Of a stretch of DNA of 64,000 bases, positions 878 through 13,688 are shown one piece after another (position 1 is the first letter of the stretch; the number at the start of each line of letters is the position of its first letter). The stretch covers positions 704,001 through 768,000 of the forward strand of contig CAVVCZ010000004.1 in NCBI GenBank assembly GCA_963746845.1. The letters run 5' to 3'. The position numbers were made by a program, and so were the translations under genes. Source of the DNA: an uncultured Chloroflexia bacterium (GTDB lineage: Bacteria > Chloroflexota > Limnocylindria > Limnocylindrales > CSP1-4). Under the pieces are notes generated by a model. The model was not told the DNA's origin. It did no database searches and saw nothing but the letters and a program-made list of their open reading frames with translations.

Positions 878-1489
878 GTGGCGGACGCCCGACCGCGGAA
901 GTCCGAGGCGGAACGCCGCGCGGACAAGGCCGAGGTCGATGACCCGGAGGTCGTGCTGGCCGCCGCGCTCCGGTTCCTCGAGACGCGCTCGCGATCCGTC
1001 GCCGAGGTCCGGCGCCGGCTCGCCCGGGCCGGGTATCGCGCGGATCTGGTCGAAGGCGCCATCGCCCGCCTGACCGAGCTCGGGATGCTCGACGACTCGG
1101 CGTTCGCCGCGCAGTGGGTGGAGTCCCGCGATCGTGCCCATCCCCGCGGCGAGCACGCGCTGATCGTCGAGCTCCGCCAGAAGGGCATCGACGCGCCGAC
1201 GATTGCCGCGACCCTCCGCGACCGGCGGGAGGCGGCGGTTCGATGGGACGGCAGTGTGCCGCCCGACGATCCGGAGCCGGATCCGCACCCGGACGCGGCC
1301 GCCGCCCGAAGGCTGCTCACGCGGAACGCCCGCGCGCTGGAGCGCATCGCCGACCCGCGGCAACGGCGCCAGCGTGCCTACGCGCTCCTTGCCCGCAACG
1401 GGTTCGACCCCGAGACCTGCCGCGAGGCGTCCGCGGAGCTGATCCGGGCCGCAGACGCTTCGGCGGAGGACGACGGGTCAGCCGGCTGA
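878..1489 (+). CDS. recX: Regulatory protein RecX
   Basis: Directly follows recA; RSRSVAEVRRRL, LDDSAFAAQWV, ELRQKGI and LARNGF match the RecX helical repeats. Confidence 0.93.
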   Translation: MADARPRKSEAERRADKAEVDDPEVVLAAALRFLETRSRSVAEVRRRLARAGYRADLVEGAIARLTELGMLDDSAFAAQWVESRDRAHPRGEHALIVELRQKGIDAPTIAATLRDRREAAVRWDGSVPPDDPEPDPHPDAAAARRLLTRNARALERIADPRQRRQRAYALLARNGFDPETCREASAELIRAADASAEDDGSAG

Positions 1490-2747
1490 CGGCCAGCGCG
1501 CGGCGATGGCCTCCGCGTCGCGGACGAGGCCGACGAGGTTCGCGGACCCCATGTCGACCATCCACGGCGTGCCGATGAAGGCGAGCCCGGGCACATCTGT
1601 GATCCCACCGTCCTGCTTCGGCAGCCCGAGATCGTCGATCACCGGCAACTCGATCCAGTCGAACGCCGGTCGGTAGCCGCTCGTCCAGAGGACCGTCGAG
1701 ATCCCCTCGGCGGCGAGGTCGAGCTCCGGCACCTCCGGCGGGTCGAACGGGAAGCGGTCCAGCCCGTCTTCCGGGAGGTCCTCGCCGGCTCGCTCCGCGA
1801 ACGTGTCGAAGCGGACCTTCAGGCGTTCGTTGAACGAGGTGTCGGCGGACTGGAGGTTCGCCGTCAGGTCCTCGGCGAACCGCACCCGGGTGCCGTCGGC
1901 GGCCTCGAACCGCCCGACCAGCCGCAATCCGTCGACGGCCATCCTCCGCAGGTCGACGTCGTGGCCGCCGCCGTGCCCCGACACCTGCGGGTTGCACACG
2001 AACGGCGCCCGCGGATTCATCGCCCGATCGGCGATCGGCAGCGGCGTTCCCACGGCCTCGCCGCGCGTCGCGAGCTGGCGCAGCCACCAGAAGACATCGC
2101 GCCCGCGATACCGGCGCGGCGCGCGACCGCACCGGCCGACGGCAATCGTGACCGACCGTCCGGCCGCCATCAGCTCCTCCGCGAGCTGGACGCCGGTCTG
2201 GCCGCTCCCGATGAGCAGCACCCCGCCCGTCGGCAGCGCGTCCGGGCTGCGGTAGTGGTGGGAGTGGAGCTGGAGGACCGACGGGTCGAAGGCCGCCGCG
2301 GCCTCCGGGATGTGCGGCACCTGGAACGGGCCGCCGGCGACGATGACCTCGCGGGCATCGAGATCCCCGCGGGTGGTGGTCAGGCGGAAGCCTCGCCCAC
2401 CGTCGCGCGCGACGAGCCGCGTCACATCGGTCTCGAGCTCGACCGGCGCGTCGATCGCGGCGGCGTAGGCCCGGAAGTGGTCGATCAGCTCGTCGCGCGG
2501 CATGAACCCGTCCGGATCGTCGCCGCGGTACGAGAAGCCCGGGAACGGTGGTCGTCCAGTTCGGCGACACGAGGCGGAAGGCGTCCCAGCGGTCCTGCCA
2601 GCCGCCGCCGAGGCTCGTGCGCCGGTCGAGGACGACGTGCTCCCGGCCGGCCTCGCTCAGCAACCGGCTCATGATCAGTCCGGCCTGGCCCGCACCGACC
2701 ACGACGACGTCGATCGATCGCGCCTCCCCGGCCGTGTGCTCTGCCAT
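1478..2747 (-). CDS. Flavin-containing monooxygenase-like FAD/NAD(P)-binding oxidoreductase (one frameshift near 2540)
   Basis: N-terminal VVVGAGQAG and [18 protein letters not shown] lie in one frame; [18 protein letters not shown] and WTSGYRP lie in the 1478..2503 frame. Confidence 0.85.
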
Positions 2748-10024: not shown

Positions 10025-11359
10025 ATGGCTCGACCCACCTCGATCGATCTCACGCCGCCCGTCGAGAAGGCGTTTCTGGTCGCCGTCGACACGGGCGACG
10101 ACGCCGGCTGGACGGCCGAGGAATCGCTCACGGAGCTCGCGAACCTGGCGACCACCGCGGGCGCCGATGTCGTGGGCGCCGAGTGGCAGAACCGGCGCCA
10201 CGTCGACCCGAACTGGTACGTCGGCAAGGGCAAGGCCGAGGAGCTCGCGCAGGCGAGGAGCGAGACCGGCTTCGACCTCCTCGTGGCCGACGACGAGCTC
10301 TCACCGAGCCAGCAGAAGGCGCTCGAAAGCCTGTTGAACGTCAAGGTGATCGACCGGAGCCGGCTGATCCTGGACATCTTCGCCCTCCACGCCCAGACCC
10401 ACGAGGGCCGTCTCCAGGTCGAGCTGGCCCAGCTCGAGTACCAGCTGCCGCGGCTGACCCGGCTGTGGACCCACCTCTCGCGGACCGGCGGCGGGATCGG
10501 CACCCGGGGACCCGGCGAGAGCCAGCTCGAGACGGACCGCCGGCTGATCCGGACCCGGATCGCGAAGATGAAGGAGCGGGTCGAGCAGGTCCGTCAGCAG
10601 CGCCAGACCGCAGCCCGCGGGCGCGACCGCCGGATGATGGCGACGGTCGGCATCGTCGGCTACACGAACGCCGGCAAGTCCACACTCCTCAACAGCCTGG
10701 TCGGGAGCGAGGTCGCCAGGGCCGAGGACAAGCTCTTCGCGACGCTCGACCCGACCTCGCGCCAGGTCAAGCTCGGCGACGGCCAGACCGCGATCGTCAC
10801 CGACACCGTCGGGTTCATCCACAAGCTCCCGCACCAGCTGGTCGACGCCTTCCGGGCGACGCTCGAGGAGGTCAACCGGGCCGATGTCCTCGTGGAGGTC
10901 GTCGATGCCTCGGATCCGCACCTCCGCGAGCACCGAGCCACCGTCCAGACGGTCCTCGATGAGCTCGGGGCGGGTGACAAGCCGCGGCTCGTCGCGTTCA
11001 ACAAGGCCGATCTCGTCGAGGCCGCGGCGCGCGACGGCGAGGCGCCGGCGCCGGCCCTGGCTGGTTCAGTGCTCGTCTCCGCGCTCACCGGCTTCGGGCT
11101 CGACACGCTTCGGGCCGAGATCGCGGCGCTCCTCGCATCGATGTGGGTGGACGTCGACGTCCACGTCCCGTACACGGCCGGCGAGCTGCTCGCCCGGGTG
11201 CGCGAGCGCGGCACGGTCGAGCTCGACTACGGCGAGCGCGACGTCCGCGTCCATGGCCGGGCGGCCCCGGCGCTGGCCGGCGAGCTGACGGCGGTGTCCG
11301 GCTCCTGGCGGGAGACGCTCACCGGAACGGGAAATGGCACCGGGGTCGAGCACGCCTGA
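10025..11359 (+). CDS. hflX: GTPase HflX
   Basis: GGIGTRGPGESQLETDRR, GYTNAGKS, LFATLDPT, DTVGF and NKAD. Confidence 0.98.
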   Translation: MARPTSIDLTPPVEKAFLVAVDTGDDAGWTAEESLTELANLATTAGADVVGAEWQNRRHVDPNWYVGKGKAEELAQARSETGFDLLVADDELSPSQQKALESLLNVKVIDRSRLILDIFALHAQTHEGRLQVELAQLEYQLPRLTRLWTHLSRTGGGIGTRGPGESQLETDRRLIRTRIAKMKERVEQVRQQRQTAARGRDRRMMATVGIVGYTNAGKSTLLNSLVGSEVARAEDKLFATLDPTSRQVKLGDGQTAIVTDTVGFIHKLPHQLVDAFRATLEEVNRADVLVEVVDASDPHLREHRATVQTVLDELGAGDKPRLVAFNKADLVEAAARDGEAPAPALAGSVLVSALTGFGLDTLRAEIAALLASMWVDVDVHVPYTAGELLARVRERGTVELDYGERDVRVHGRAAPALAGELTAVSGSWRETLTGTGNGTGVEHA

Positions 11360-11360
11360 G

Positions 11361-11849
11361 GTGAGCCAGGTGCGGCGCGCCGGTCATGGACGGGCGAGCG
11401 ATGGATCCATCGTCACGTGGACCGTGGCCGAGGGTCGCCGGGGCCGGCGCTGGCGCGAGGTCATCGCCGTGGGGGAGGGGATCCGCTCGTCGCTCCTGCT
11501 CGAGCTCGATCCCGAGGGACGGTTCAGCCATCTCGAGCTGTCGACGGCCGCCGGCCTGCTGACGCTCCATCCGGAGGGCGACGGCACGCTCCACGGCAAC
11601 GTCGTGACCGCCGATGGCGTCGCGCACGTGGTCGGCCTGCCGTGGGACGCGGACACAAGCGTCCTCCTGGACGGCTCGACGGTCTGCCGCGCCGCGGCGG
11701 CCCACGACGCTGGCCACGGTTCCCTCCGGATCGGGTTGGACCTGAGCCTCCGGCCGACGTCCGACCCGCTCGACGCGATCGCCCTCGACGCCGACGGCCT
11801 GCCGGTCCTCGCGGCCGGCGCGACCTGGCCGCTCGAGCGTGGCGGCTGA
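11361..11849 (+). CDS. Hypothetical protein
   Basis: GTG 2 nt after the hflX stop; host-like codon use (WTVAEGRRGRRWRE); no recognised motif. Confidence 0.7.
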   Translation: MSQVRRAGHGRASDGSIVTWTVAEGRRGRRWREVIAVGEGIRSSLLLELDPEGRFSHLELSTAAGLLTLHPEGDGTLHGNVVTADGVAHVVGLPWDADTSVLLDGSTVCRAAAAHDAGHGSLRIGLDLSLRPTSDPLDAIALDADGLPVLAAGATWPLERGG

Positions 11850-11850
11850 G

Positions 11851-11973
11851 TCATCCACAGCGAATCCCGGCAACTTCGTGGACGGACCGTGGACAACCCT
11901 CGCAGATTCGGCCCCGAAACCGCGAAAGTCGTGGACAAGTGGGCTAGGCAGCACTCCCGCCGCCACCTACAGT
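11851..11973 (+). promoter_or_regulatory. SigmaA-type promoter with DnaA-box-like array (copy 1)
   Basis: TCATCCACA at 11851; CGTGGACGG at 11877; CGTGGACAA at 11888 and 11930 (reverse complement TTGTCCACG); -35 TAGGCA 11945-11950, 17-bp spacer, -10 TACAGT 11968-11973. Confidence 0.6.
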
Positions 11974-11980
11974 AGGTCTT

Positions 11981-12072
11981 GCCCGAAGGGGCCACGAGAC
12001 CGAAAGTGACGACGCAGGTGCTTGCATCGGCGGCGGAGGCTGCGGGAGCGAGGTTCCTTCGGGCGTTTCGTT
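11981..12072 (+). ncRNA. Candidate structured small RNA, copy 1
   Basis: 5' GCCCGAAGGGGCC pairs with 3' GGTTCCTTCGGGC; central bubble; apical stem GGTG-CTTG-CATC; GTTTCGTT tail; starts after a 7-nt gap from the -10; paralog at 12808. Confidence 0.7.
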
Positions 12073-12079
12073 GTGCCCG

Positions 12080-12655
12080 TCAGATGCCGACCGGGACGGT
12101 CGTGCACCGGACCGGGGCCGCGCCGGCCGGGCGGGTCATCGTCCGAGCGGCCTCGAACATCCCGGTCCAGGCCGCCGGGCCGCCCGCCCCCTCGAACGCG
12201 GCCTGCGGGCTGACCCCTCCGCCGGCCGGGTCCACCGACGTGCGCCGCGCGGCGACCATCGCCTCGTAGGCGACGAACAGGCGGTCGAGCTGGGCCATCG
12301 ACGGAGCACCCGGCGCCCAGCCTGCGGCGATCGCGGCCTGGCCTCGTCCCTGCTCCAGCTGGGCGGTGATCGTCGTCGCCAGCTGGTCGGCCTTCGTCGC
12401 CTGGCCCGCGGCCACGGCCGCCTCGAACGACAGGCTGAGCTGGGAGCCGATCCCGGTATCGGGGTTGCCGACGGCCGTGAACAACGCCCCGAACGCGTTG
12501 CAGAACGCCGAGCCGAACTCCTCGTAGGTCGCGGCACGAGCGGGGCTGGAGTCGGACGGCTTTGCGCCGCCCGGCTCCCCACTGCGGCAGCCGACGCACA
12601 GACCCGCGACCAGGACCATCGCGATCGCGATCGCTCGCGTCGAGGGCTGGGTCAT
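12080..12655 (-). CDS. Putative lipoprotein
   Basis: MTQPSTRAIAIAMVLVAGLCVGC signal peptide/lipobox followed by an Ala-rich helical body. Confidence 0.75.
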   Translation of the reverse strand: MTQPSTRAIAIAMVLVAGLCVGCRSGEPGGAKPSDSSPARAATYEEFGSAFCNAFGALFTAVGNPDTGIGSQLSLSFEAAVAAGQATKADQLATTITAQLEQGRGQAAIAAGWAPGAPSMAQLDRLFVAYEAMVAARRTSVDPAGGGVSPQAAFEGAGGPAAWTGMFEAARTMTRPAGAAPVRCTTVPVGI

Positions 12656-12704
12656 GTCGATCCTGCTTTCCGCTCGAGTGTGCACCCCGGGTCGCGCGTC
12701 CGGA

Positions 12705-12800
12705 TGTGGGAACGCCGTGGACAACCCTCGCGGTTGCGACACGGATGACGCCGAGCTCGTGGAAAAGACGCTGGACGGGGCGGTTCGTTTCACGTACTGT
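12705..12800 (+). promoter_or_regulatory. SigmaA-type promoter with DnaA-box-like array (copy 2)
   Basis: TGTGGGAAC at 12705, CGTGGACAA at 12716, CGTGGAAAA at 12758 (same 11- and 42-bp offsets as copy 1); -35 TGGACG 12772-12777, 17-bp spacer, -10 TACTGT 12795-12800. Confidence 0.6.
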
Positions 12801-12807
12801 TCGTCGT

Positions 12808-12898
12808 GCCCGGAGGGGCCTCGAACATCTAGTGATCCGATTGGTACTTGTATTGATCGGAACAGCCAGTGATCGACGGTTCCTTCGGGCGTTTTCGT
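12808..12898 (+). ncRNA. Candidate structured small RNA, copy 2
   Basis: 5' GCCCGGAGGGGCC pairs with 3' GGTTCCTTCGGGC; apical hairpin TCCGATTGGTA-CTTG-TATTGATCGGA; GTTTTCGT tail; starts after a 7-nt gap from the -10. Confidence 0.7.
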
Positions 12899-12947
12899 GT
12901 CCGCCGCTCGCCGGTCGGGGCTGGACCGCCGCTGGCACAATCGGGCG

Positions 12948-13688
12948 ATGAAGATCACCGACGGGATCCATCGACTCGGCCCGGGCCTGGTCAACGTGTA
13001 CCTCCTCGAGGAGGCCGGCGGCATCACGATCGTCGACGCGGGGATGCCCGGTGACTGGTCGGACCTGCTGGCCGAGCTGGCGGCGATGGGCCGCTCCCTC
13101 GATGACGTTCGCGCCGTCGTCCTGACCCATGGGCACTCGGACCACATCGGGTTCGCCGAGCGCGCGCGGACCGAGCGCCACCTCCCGGTGTCGGTCCACG
13201 AGCTCGACGCGGCGCTGGCTCGCGGCGAGGTGAGCAGCTCGAGCAAGGACGGCGGTCCCGTCAGCCTGATCCCGCTCCTGAAGTTCATGCTGCTCGGCCT
13301 GCGGCGGGGCGGCCTCAAGTCCGTCCACGTCGGCGAGGTCGCGACATACGGCGACGGGGTCACCCTCGACGTCCCGGGCGCCCCGACCGTCATCCACCTG
13401 CCGGGTCACACGCCGGGGAGCGCGGCCCTCCACGTCGCGTCACGCGACGCGCTCCTCATCGGCGACGCGCTCGCGACCGTCTCGGCCGTGAACGGGAGGA
13501 CGGGCCCGATGATCGCGCCGTACACGGCCGAGCCGGCGCAGGCGATCGCGTCCCTCGACCGCCTGGACGGCATCGAGGCCGGGTGGGTGCTGCCGGGCCA
13601 TGGCCAGCCGTGGACGGGCGGTGTGGCGGAGGCGGTGCGCCGGATCCGGGCGGCGGGACCGGAGGGGATGGGTCGGCCGGCGGCCTGA
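12948..13688 (+). CDS. MBL-fold metallo-hydrolase
   Basis: VDAG, LTHGHSDHIG (HxHxDH), PGHTPG, GDAL and PGHG. Confidence 0.93.
   Translation: MKITDGIHRLGPGLVNVYLLEEAGGITIVDAGMPGDWSDLLAELAAMGRSLDDVRAVVLTHGHSDHIGFAERARTERHLPVSVHELDAALARGEVSSSSKDGGPVSLIPLLKFMLLGLRRGGLKSVHVGEVATYGDGVTLDVPGAPTVIHLPGHTPGSAALHVASRDALLIGDALATVSAVNGRTGPMIAPYTAEPAQAIASLDRLDGIEAGWVLPGHGQPWTGGVAEAVRRIRAAGPEGMGRPAA

Follow-up and report, generated by a model that had tools for sequence, protein, structure and literature searches.

Five structured small-RNA genes behind DnaA-box-like promoter sites in an uncultured Limnocylindria bacterium

Two short and similar stretches of DNA in the genome of an uncultured Limnocylindria bacterium raise the question of whether they are genes for small RNAs (sRNAs) and, if so, what controls these genes and what their products do. 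Both lie in a stretch of 64,000 nucleotides (nt), positions 704,001 to 768,000 of contig CAVVCZ010000004.1 (assembly GCA_963746845.1), which is called the window here and in which plain coordinates are counted from the first letter. A preliminary description, made from the letters of this window alone, had proposed two paralogous structured RNAs of about 84 nt with matching promoters and had compared them to a miniature 6S RNA. Both RNAs are found where it had placed them, i.e. c1 at 11981-12064 (84 nt) and c2 at 12808-12890 (83 nt), on the plus strand. Judged by their sequences and those of their relatives, c1 and c2 are real small-RNA genes, the transcription of which we infer, and they have three siblings elsewhere in the same genome. 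All five genes are preceded by boxes in fixed positions, which are identical to boxes of the organism's own replication origin. That c1 and c2 belong to a set of five structured sRNA genes, each transcribed independently and all co-regulated as siblings, probably under the replication initiator DnaA, is a reading whose chances of being right or wrong we regard as evenly poised.

c1, c2 and the selection on their folds

The two genes have the start GCCCG(A/G)AGGGGCC as well as their 3' end in common. c1 runs from 5' GCCCGAAGGGGCC to 3' GGTTCCTTCGGGC and is followed by the U-rich tail GTTTCGTT (12065-12072, plus strand), in which there is no consensus terminator; c2 runs from 5' GCCCGGAGGGGCC to the same 3' GGTTCCTTCGGGC and is followed by the U-rich tail GTTTTCGT (12891-12898, plus strand), and GTTT(C/T) comes directly after the shared end in both. 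The similarity extends over the upstream 130 nt, with a mean column identity of 77% over the 235 columns of the alignment (A1).

In both RNAs the ends form a closing stem of 13 bp (in c1, 11981-11993 pairs with 12052-12064) that contains two invariant tandem G.U pairs, and because these would become A.C on the opposite strand, the plus strand is the RNA strand. The apex is a GGUR-CUUG-YAUY hairpin (GGUGCUUGCAUC in c1, GGUACUUGUAUU in c2), the closing pair of which is G-C in c1 and A-U in c2, and the apical stem of c2 has 11 bp; closing stem and apex are thus as they had been described. Of the two-sided bubble that had been placed between the stems only the half concerning c1 holds, as c1 has two internal loops there, whereas c2 is a near-continuous rod with a CAUCUAGUGAUC-like sequence on both of its strands, and this region is almost fully paired in all c2-type RNAs (35 pairs). 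The predicted folds are very stable, with -46.6 kcal/mol and a z-score of -4.04 for c1 and -46.4 kcal/mol and a z-score of -6.52 for c2, and for neither RNA did any of 200 dinucleotide shuffles reach the same stability. The reverse strands (-34.6 and -34.3 kcal/mol) fold about 12 kcal/mol more poorly. One fold dominates for each RNA (ensemble frequency 0.34-0.43), and no alternative fold was seen.

These RNA bodies are under structural selection, which is visible in compensatory changes among relatives. In 15 c2-type sequences from three genera, the consensus comprises 35 pairs with interruptions of only 1-2 nt; 98.9% of all cells are paired, and 8 of the 35 pairs have changed on both sides (24 cells). 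The covariation score of 0.213 compares to a shuffled mean of 0.138 and is not reached by any of 500 shuffles, and with the partner strand slid along, pairing falls to 33-49% and the score to 0.027-0.069. Similarly, 18 c1-type sequences have 94.8% of the cells of 27 pairs paired and 7 of these pairs changed on both sides (22 cells), with a score of 0.229 (shuffled mean 0.155; 0 of 500 shuffles as high) and 41-51% pairing with the partner slid. Double changes also occur in the inner stems of 33 c5-type sequences, a set picked by the exact closing-stem pattern plus the loop motifs, so that its stem and loop invariance exists by construction. The two-sided changes bear out the earlier suggestion that these are functional RNA genes in which structure is kept as sequence drifts.

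Not all parts of the RNAs vary in the same manner. Within the taxonomic family of this genome (f1), changes in the closing stem are wobble-preserving transitions only, whereas the inner stems covary. In f4, another family of the same class, six of the eight copies examined open the closing stem with U-A in place of G-C, and this change shows the closing stem to be an RNA helix that is also held in sequence. Conserved in sequence are furthermore the apical motifs GGUR-YUUR-YAUY and, in other members of the family (see below), the loop GAU[CGU][AG]CAUCAA. In the c2-type, the same 12-mer occurs on both strands of the rod, which makes it a pseudo-twofold duplex, and c2-type RNAs retain CAUCUAGUGAUC on both strands in f1 as well as in f4 (loci L230 and L231 of f4; L054 of genus g17).

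A family of five and its distribution

A paired search for both arms of the closing stem located three further copies in this genome (G000; 3.56 Mb, 92% complete), in which BLAST with c1 and c2 had given partial matches only. These are c3, with 186 nt by far the longest (G000:C4:521974-522159, plus strand), c4 (76 nt; G000:C6:166108-166183, minus strand) and c5 (74 nt; G000:C5:350417-350490, minus strand). What c1-c5 share is the two arms, the short U-rich tail, a stable fold and, about 7 nt upstream, a -10 hexamer; their bodies differ, with c3, c4 and c5 having a GAUC(A/G)CAUCAA module in common. The c3-type consensus (about 187 nt, 10 sequences) is branched and carries a hairpin with a GNRA-like loop and the GAUCACAUCAAGG module. 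A covariance model (R1), to which the four short copies and, as its only structure, the closing stem were given, scores these copies at 76-92 bits in G000 (92.4 bits for c1 and 84.8 bits for c2). As far as sequence comparison goes, c1 and c2 thus belong to a family of five structured small-RNA genes in this genome; the pair seen earlier is real, and what had been overlooked is the five-member family and its span of two taxonomic families.

Among relatives, R1 finds matches in 23 of the 24 other genomes of the genus, mostly with four copies each, and in 148 of 150 genomes and all 49 genera of f1 (G000 included), with one to seven copies per genome. In a search across the class, 44 of 44 f1 and 49 of 50 f4 genomes have matches, and no R1 match was obtained among the genomes searched from f2 (0 of 6), f3 (0 of 49) and f5 (0 of 1). 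In the sister family f2, with its genomes of 1.0-1.4 Mb, a separate search of 16 genomes was likewise without an R1 match, and it is in this sense that the family is called absent from a group. The tallies for f1 and the class include the unpublished genomes G121, G177, G272, G247 and G253, the sequences of which were not used. When one genome per prokaryotic species was scanned with the exact pattern, matches came up on at least 120 contigs, and among the 80 matches listed, whose titles were judged, 76 are titled Chloroflexota, Chloroflexia, Anaerolineaceae or Ca. Limnocylindrales/Limnocylindria. One of the four labelled otherwise (L166) is nearly identical to the c5 of the genus, and its contig may be mis-binned. 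Going by these record titles, the family is an undescribed one that belongs to the Chloroflexota class Ca. Limnocylindria. In a genome of another genus, three c1-type copies lie within 4.2 kb (G067:C1:2283517-2287700; loci L060, L067 and L069); two of them have the same RNA and promoter sequences, suggesting that a tandem duplication took place recently.

Could the family be a dispersed mobile repeat of the REP or MITE kind, a caveat already raised in the preliminary description? It is multi-copy, and one arm repeats the other in inverted orientation. With five copies in a genome of 3.56 Mb and a body that changes from copy to copy, it does not show the pattern of such repeats, however; the copies are diverged, each subtype stands in conserved synteny across genera, bodies that differ between copies are nevertheless each conserved, and the G.U pattern is strand-specific. 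We therefore give a mobile repeat next to no probability.

No known RNA family is recognised in c1 or c2, and in this the preliminary description was right. At gathering thresholds, Rfam 15 finds nothing in the whole window but a c-di-GMP-I-GGC riboswitch aptamer (RF03167; 23366-23463, plus strand; 66.9 bits, above the gathering score), and a search at E-values up to 10 of positions 11700-13000 and of the c3 and c4 loci (L002 and L003) returned nothing relevant. A malK-III match at 12653-12743 on the minus strand, in the 5' region of a lipoprotein gene and overlapping the c2 box region, was taken as chance (19.2 bits, E 0.31). Y RNA with its Ro/Rsr partner is similar in having a sequence-conserved end-to-end stem, several paralogues and variable bodies, but it was rejected, as TROVE (PF05731) has no match in the 92%-complete G000 and no Rfam Y RNA match appeared at E-values up to 10.

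This leaves the comparison with 6S RNA, i.e. the idea that c1 and c2 are miniature open-promoter mimics that trap RNA polymerase. Like 6S RNA (RF00013), c1 and c2 are closed by their paired ends into a rod, c1 has its two internal loops, and c3 has the length of 186 nt; moreover, the role may be unfilled, since no 6S RNA was recognised in the genome, where the best candidate (G000:C4:156392-156519, plus strand; L021) reaches 18.9 bits at a cut-off of 46.4 bits (E 0.18). Against this, RF00013 gives no match at E-values up to 10 in positions 11700-13000 or at the c3 and c4 loci, and thus none for c1, c2, c3 or c4. A 6S RNA has about 180-200 nt and a large conserved central bubble, whereas c1 (84 nt) and c2 (83 nt) are half as long and have no such bubble in common, and the c3-type (about 187 nt) is branched rather than a rod with a central bubble. 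Because the c2-type is a near-continuous 35-pair rod, an internal bubble is not a family feature, and five different bodies sit on one and the same stem. A 6S-like function, the explanation originally put forward, thus seems highly improbable.

Promoter boxes and the replication origin

The core promoters of c1 and c2 lie on the plus strand at 11945-11973, reading TAGGCA (11945-11950), 17 bp and TACAGT (11968-11973), and at 12772-12800, reading TGGACG (12772-12777), 17 bp and TACTGT (12795-12800), with TACAGT and TACTGT each ending 7 nt before the respective RNA start. The promoters thus match in the way first described, with their -10 hexamers and the -35-like elements 17 bp upstream, but shared GTGGACAA boxes in front of them had escaped notice. 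At c1, the proximal box GTGGACAA (11931-11938, plus strand) stands 50 nt and the distal box GTGGACAA (11889-11896, plus strand) 92 nt before the RNA start; farther up follow a degenerate box, GTGGACGG, at 11878-11885 (plus strand) and, farthest from c1, a reverse box-like site at 11853-11859 (minus strand, reading ATCCACA on the plus strand). At c2, the proximal box GTGGAAAA (12759-12766, plus strand) stands 49 nt before the RNA start, and GTGGACAA is again the distal box (12717-12724, plus strand).

The positions of these boxes are fixed. GTGGA(C/T)AA-like boxes are present in all five promoters of the genome, the proximal one 49-50 nt before the RNA and the next about 32-42 nt farther up, often with reverse-oriented boxes beyond the forward pair. 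A wider view comes from 116 promoters of other genomes that were picked by the exact closing-stem pattern, i.e. with the upstream sequence lying outside the pattern: at least one forward box is found in 114 and at least two in 84 of them, with 95 boxes in the -55/-50 bins, 106 at -95 to -85 and 58 reverse boxes clustering at -120 to -105, and in 94 of 96 promoters the proximal box begins 49-52 nt ahead of the RNA. In the consensus, cGTGGATAA is followed by 5-6 nt, TTGACC, 18 nt, TAnnnT, 7 nt and G. A box also occurs in 15 of 16 promoters of five near-complete genomes of other genera, and boxes are present in six of the eight f4 promoters examined. The promoters without a box in these two sets all belong to c2-type copies (L054 of genus g17; L230 and L231 of f4).

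The same boxes mark the replication origin of this organism. dnaA lies on contig C1, and the dnaA-dnaN spacer contains GTGGACAA(C) twice, GTGGACAG, GTGGACGA and several reverse copies, with the promoter boxes being identical to these origin boxes and in fixed register. In all five other genomes inspected, strict boxes (one to five each) follow just downstream of dnaA, and the 1.7 kb before are free of them. Read in reverse complement, the GTGGA(C/T)AA box matches the classical DnaA box, which is TTATCCACA in E. coli and TTGTCCACA in Gram-positives of high GC content. Genome-wide, at least three strict boxes within 250 nt exist only in the dnaA-dnaN spacer and in the c4 promoter. The genome has eight forward box pairs with a spacing of 22-40 nt, compared to about 3.1 expected by chance, and these lie in the dnaA-dnaN spacer, the five RNA promoters, a 23S gene and at an AT-rich contig end; the latter two are probably chance sites, the contig end (G000:C6:1048, minus strand) being an unusually AT-rich stretch with two GTGGAAA sites. 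Moreover, 8 of the 43 perfect GTGGACAA/GTGGATAA octamers of the genome fall in the five RNA promoters, and the sole protein in the genome with a DnaA C-terminal DNA-binding domain is DnaA itself.

Boxes were also seen at two protein-coding loci. The same box-TTGAC module as at the RNA genes, with two further boxes upstream (G000:C1:280809, minus strand; L080, about 1320-1590, minus strand), stands before rsmG/gidB and its leader of about 190 nt, and an Rfam search of this leader gave no match. One GTGGACAA box, TTGAC and the palindrome cttagtgagtactaagt (G000:C4:18981, minus strand; L081) stand before a nearly leaderless TetR-family gene, which is followed by an MFS transporter gene; the box before this TetR-MFS operon is probably due to chance.

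Sites such as datA, DARS and the DnaA-box clusters of Bacillus subtilis are known to titrate or recycle DnaA, and the five loci might do the same at the level of DNA, with transcription of a stable hairpin modulating their occupancy. The two likely chance sites aside, paired boxes outside the origin occur at these loci only, they hold the eight perfect octamers mentioned above, and the positions of their boxes are fixed. For a mere DNA site, however, compensatory changes in the RNA bodies and the maintenance of subtype-specific bodies across two families would be superfluous, and c2-type copies persist without any boxes. A role of this kind is rather improbable.

Control, partners and possible roles of the RNAs

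Each locus is a compact cassette in which GTGGA(C/T)AA boxes at about -50 and -85 to -95 in forward and often at -105 to -120 in reverse orientation precede a core promoter, followed by an RNA whose first and last 13 nt pair into the sequence-conserved stem and which has a subtype-specific body and a short U run. In the reading that we develop here, primary transcripts would extend from +1, the G of GCCCG, to this U run. DnaA, i.e. the replication initiator acting as a transcription factor, would bind to the boxes and control all siblings together, and the levels of the RNAs would report initiator or replication status. With a box centred near -47 and abutting the -35 element, activation is suggested, but the sign of control could be either. 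The closing stem may act as terminator, as end protection and probably as a handle for a common protein, with the different bodies possibly providing each sibling with a separate partner, protein or mRNA. It is a tentative and on balance somewhat doubtful extension of this reading that DnaA commands a dedicated sRNA regulon, through which the state of the initiator or of replication would reach post-transcriptional control, or which would feed back on DnaA and replication.

Several points weigh against control by DnaA of independently transcribed sRNA genes. DnaA binding is suggested by the likeness to the origin boxes only, another factor could bind there, and in most boxes GTGGA is preceded by C and not by T. 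Given the boxless c2-type copies L054, L230 and L231, control by boxes does not extend to every copy. The counts of promoters and boxes come from genomes that are kin and are thus not independent of each other, so that they overstate the independence of the evidence, and the invariance of the closing stem in the set of 116 promoters is a consequence of how the set was picked. Scans for consensus promoters and terminators between 11800 and 13000 gave no site, and the core promoters of c1 and c2 are weak by the E. coli consensus. No RNA sequencing run was found to contain positions 11300-13400 of the window; four soil DNA runs of one study contain 0.21-0.28 of the words of this region. In addition, c4- and c5-type copies mostly lie between genes of the same strand, which would also fit a role as leaders, and no partner emerged from a simple complement search. 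In this search, with up to one mismatch, the complements of four conserved loop motifs had 5, 9, 4 and 11 matches compared to 0-38 for shuffled motifs; the exact matches were antisense of the RNA genes themselves, and matches in coding regions were no commoner than for shuffled motifs.

Pairing with ribosomal RNA was considered as well, and rejected. The loop GAU[CGU][AG]CAUCAA of c3, c4 and c5 resembles the 16S 3' tail GAUCACCUCC (16S 3' end at G000:C4:1254756), and the complementary GUGAUCC is present in c2 and c3. For duplexes between each of the five bodies and the last 14 nt of this tail, the fractions of shuffles with an energy as good were 0.80, 0.07, 0.056, 0.54 and 0.70. GAUCACCUC occurs in only 3 of 82 distinct c4- and c5-type loops, and the likeness to the 16S tail is taken as chance.

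The lack of signal in the target search fits an alternative, already named in the preliminary description as a protein sponge, in which the RNAs would be decoys or scaffolds that sequester or deliver a protein, as do CsrB, 6S and Y RNA, with the closing stem and the apical motifs as protein sites and without any pairing to mRNA. This would also be in line with the wobble-preserving changes in the closing stem of f1 while the inner stems covary, with both apical motifs, GGUR-YUUR-YAUY and the GAU[CGU][AG]CAUCAA loop, being kept in sequence, and with the 12-mer on both strands that makes the c2-type a pseudo-twofold duplex. On the other hand, no candidate protein is at hand: a TROVE/Rsr gene is missing from the 92%-complete genome, the neighbouring products, i.e. 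the protein encoded by orf171 and a metallo-beta-lactamase (MBL)-fold hydrolase, match no RNA-binding family, and the conserved sequence of the stem could instead reflect constraints by promoter escape or termination. Such a protein-binding role, which is compatible with control by DnaA boxes and thus overlaps with the reading of co-regulated siblings, is possible but unlikely.

The gene neighbourhood suggests yet another possibility. The gene order in the window is miaA, hflX, orf171, c1, a putative lipoprotein gene on the minus strand, c2 and the MBL-fold hydrolase gene. hflX (10025-11359, plus strand; Pfam GTP-bdg_N, GTP-bdg_M and MMR_HSR1) encodes a ribosome-associated GTPase and is a conserved upstream neighbour, and orf171 (11334-11849, plus strand), between hflX and c1, encodes a conserved protein without Pfam or NCBIfam match. 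The gene between c1 and c2 (orf191; 12080-12655, minus strand) has a translation that looks like a lipoprotein and matches no family, and the hydrolase gene 58 nt downstream of c2 (12948-13688, plus strand) has a Pfam Lactamase_B domain and matches no NCBIfam model above cut-off. In tblastn searches around 20 c1-type loci, 14 had hflX upstream, 15 had a match to orf171 and 7 had one to the MBL hydrolase (genera g29 and g11 among them), with the misses being partly due to truncation, since the loci reach only 1.5 kb to each side. orf191, by contrast, was matched in one of the 20 loci, and the distance between c1 and c2 is only about 400 nt in G016; by this comparison, orf191 is a local and variable insert. 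c4 lies after moaA (identified by its N-terminal sequence) and before a PNP_UDP_1 phosphorylase gene.

Given such neighbours, the RNAs could be 5' leaders or attenuators that act in cis on downstream genes, e.g. c2 on the MBL hydrolase gene. The adjacency of these two is conserved, and among the copies for which a call was possible, 36 of 38 of the c4-type and 35 of 38 of the c5-type share their strand with the downstream coding sequence. However, upstream genes are on the same strand equally often at these copies, which rather points to inherited synteny. Moreover, the genes that c1 and c3 face are on the opposite strand, about 220 nt separate the end of c4 from the start of the phosphorylase-domain gene, and the downstream genes differ among the paralogues. 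Starting at +1, the hairpin furthermore takes up the entire transcript; it has -46 kcal/mol, and no alternative fold was seen. Altogether, a leader function is quite improbable.

In returning to sRNA siblings under a common regulator, the question is how unusual these would be. Sets of this kind are well known, with Qrr1-5, the csRNAs of the CiaR regulon, GlmY/GlmZ and RsmX/Y/Z as examples. They are similarly paralogous sRNA genes, each with its own promoter and terminator, with sites for the same factor at a fixed distance and with RNA bodies that are partly shared and partly specific. Here, too, we find paralogous genes, the same upstream motif at a fixed distance and a conserved structure with compensatory changes. 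In contrast to the known sets, the sites are DnaA-box-like and the shared part is a 13-bp stem joining the ends rather than a seed or loop motif; c1-c5 have no sequence relation to any of these RNAs and no Rfam match, and we know of no sRNA chaperone in Chloroflexota. Thus, sibling sRNAs under one factor are a known kind, and what is new is the apparent factor together with the conserved end-joining stem.

As for the boxes, DnaA acts as a transcription factor at sda of B. subtilis, a small checkpoint gene with DnaA boxes upstream. Like sda, datA, DARS and the B. subtilis clusters, the promoters of c1-c5 have boxes identical to those of the origin, clustered outside the origin and, here, just upstream of a promoter, and they contain at least two sites that match the organism's own origin boxes, as DnaA-box clusters do. 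They differ in that the products are structured non-coding RNAs in five copies and in that binding is suggested by sequence. Non-coding RNAs tied to master regulators of replication or the cell cycle also have precedents, i.e. the cell-cycle-wired sRNAs CcnA of Caulobacter (PMC8959179) and EcpR1 of Sinorhizobium (PMC5928217). These are reported to be single genes of Alphaproteobacteria linked to CtrA/GcrA, and they have no likeness to c1-c5 in sequence or structure. In the literature collection that was searched, no paper was found that links DnaA boxes to sRNA genes and none on RNA motifs in Limnocylindria.

Overall, c1-c5 define an RNA family of deep conservation, which Rfam does not contain and which occurs in an abundant uncultured class. 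The covariance model R1 can be used at once to annotate such genes and to seek them in metatranscriptomes, and the cassette itself is compact and testable. If its boxes are DnaA sites, the five genes would represent, as far as the literature searched shows, the first case of an sRNA regulon under the replication initiator. If this is true, it would be an RNA counterpart of control of the sda and datA type, conserved across a widespread class of uncultured soil and freshwater Chloroflexota.

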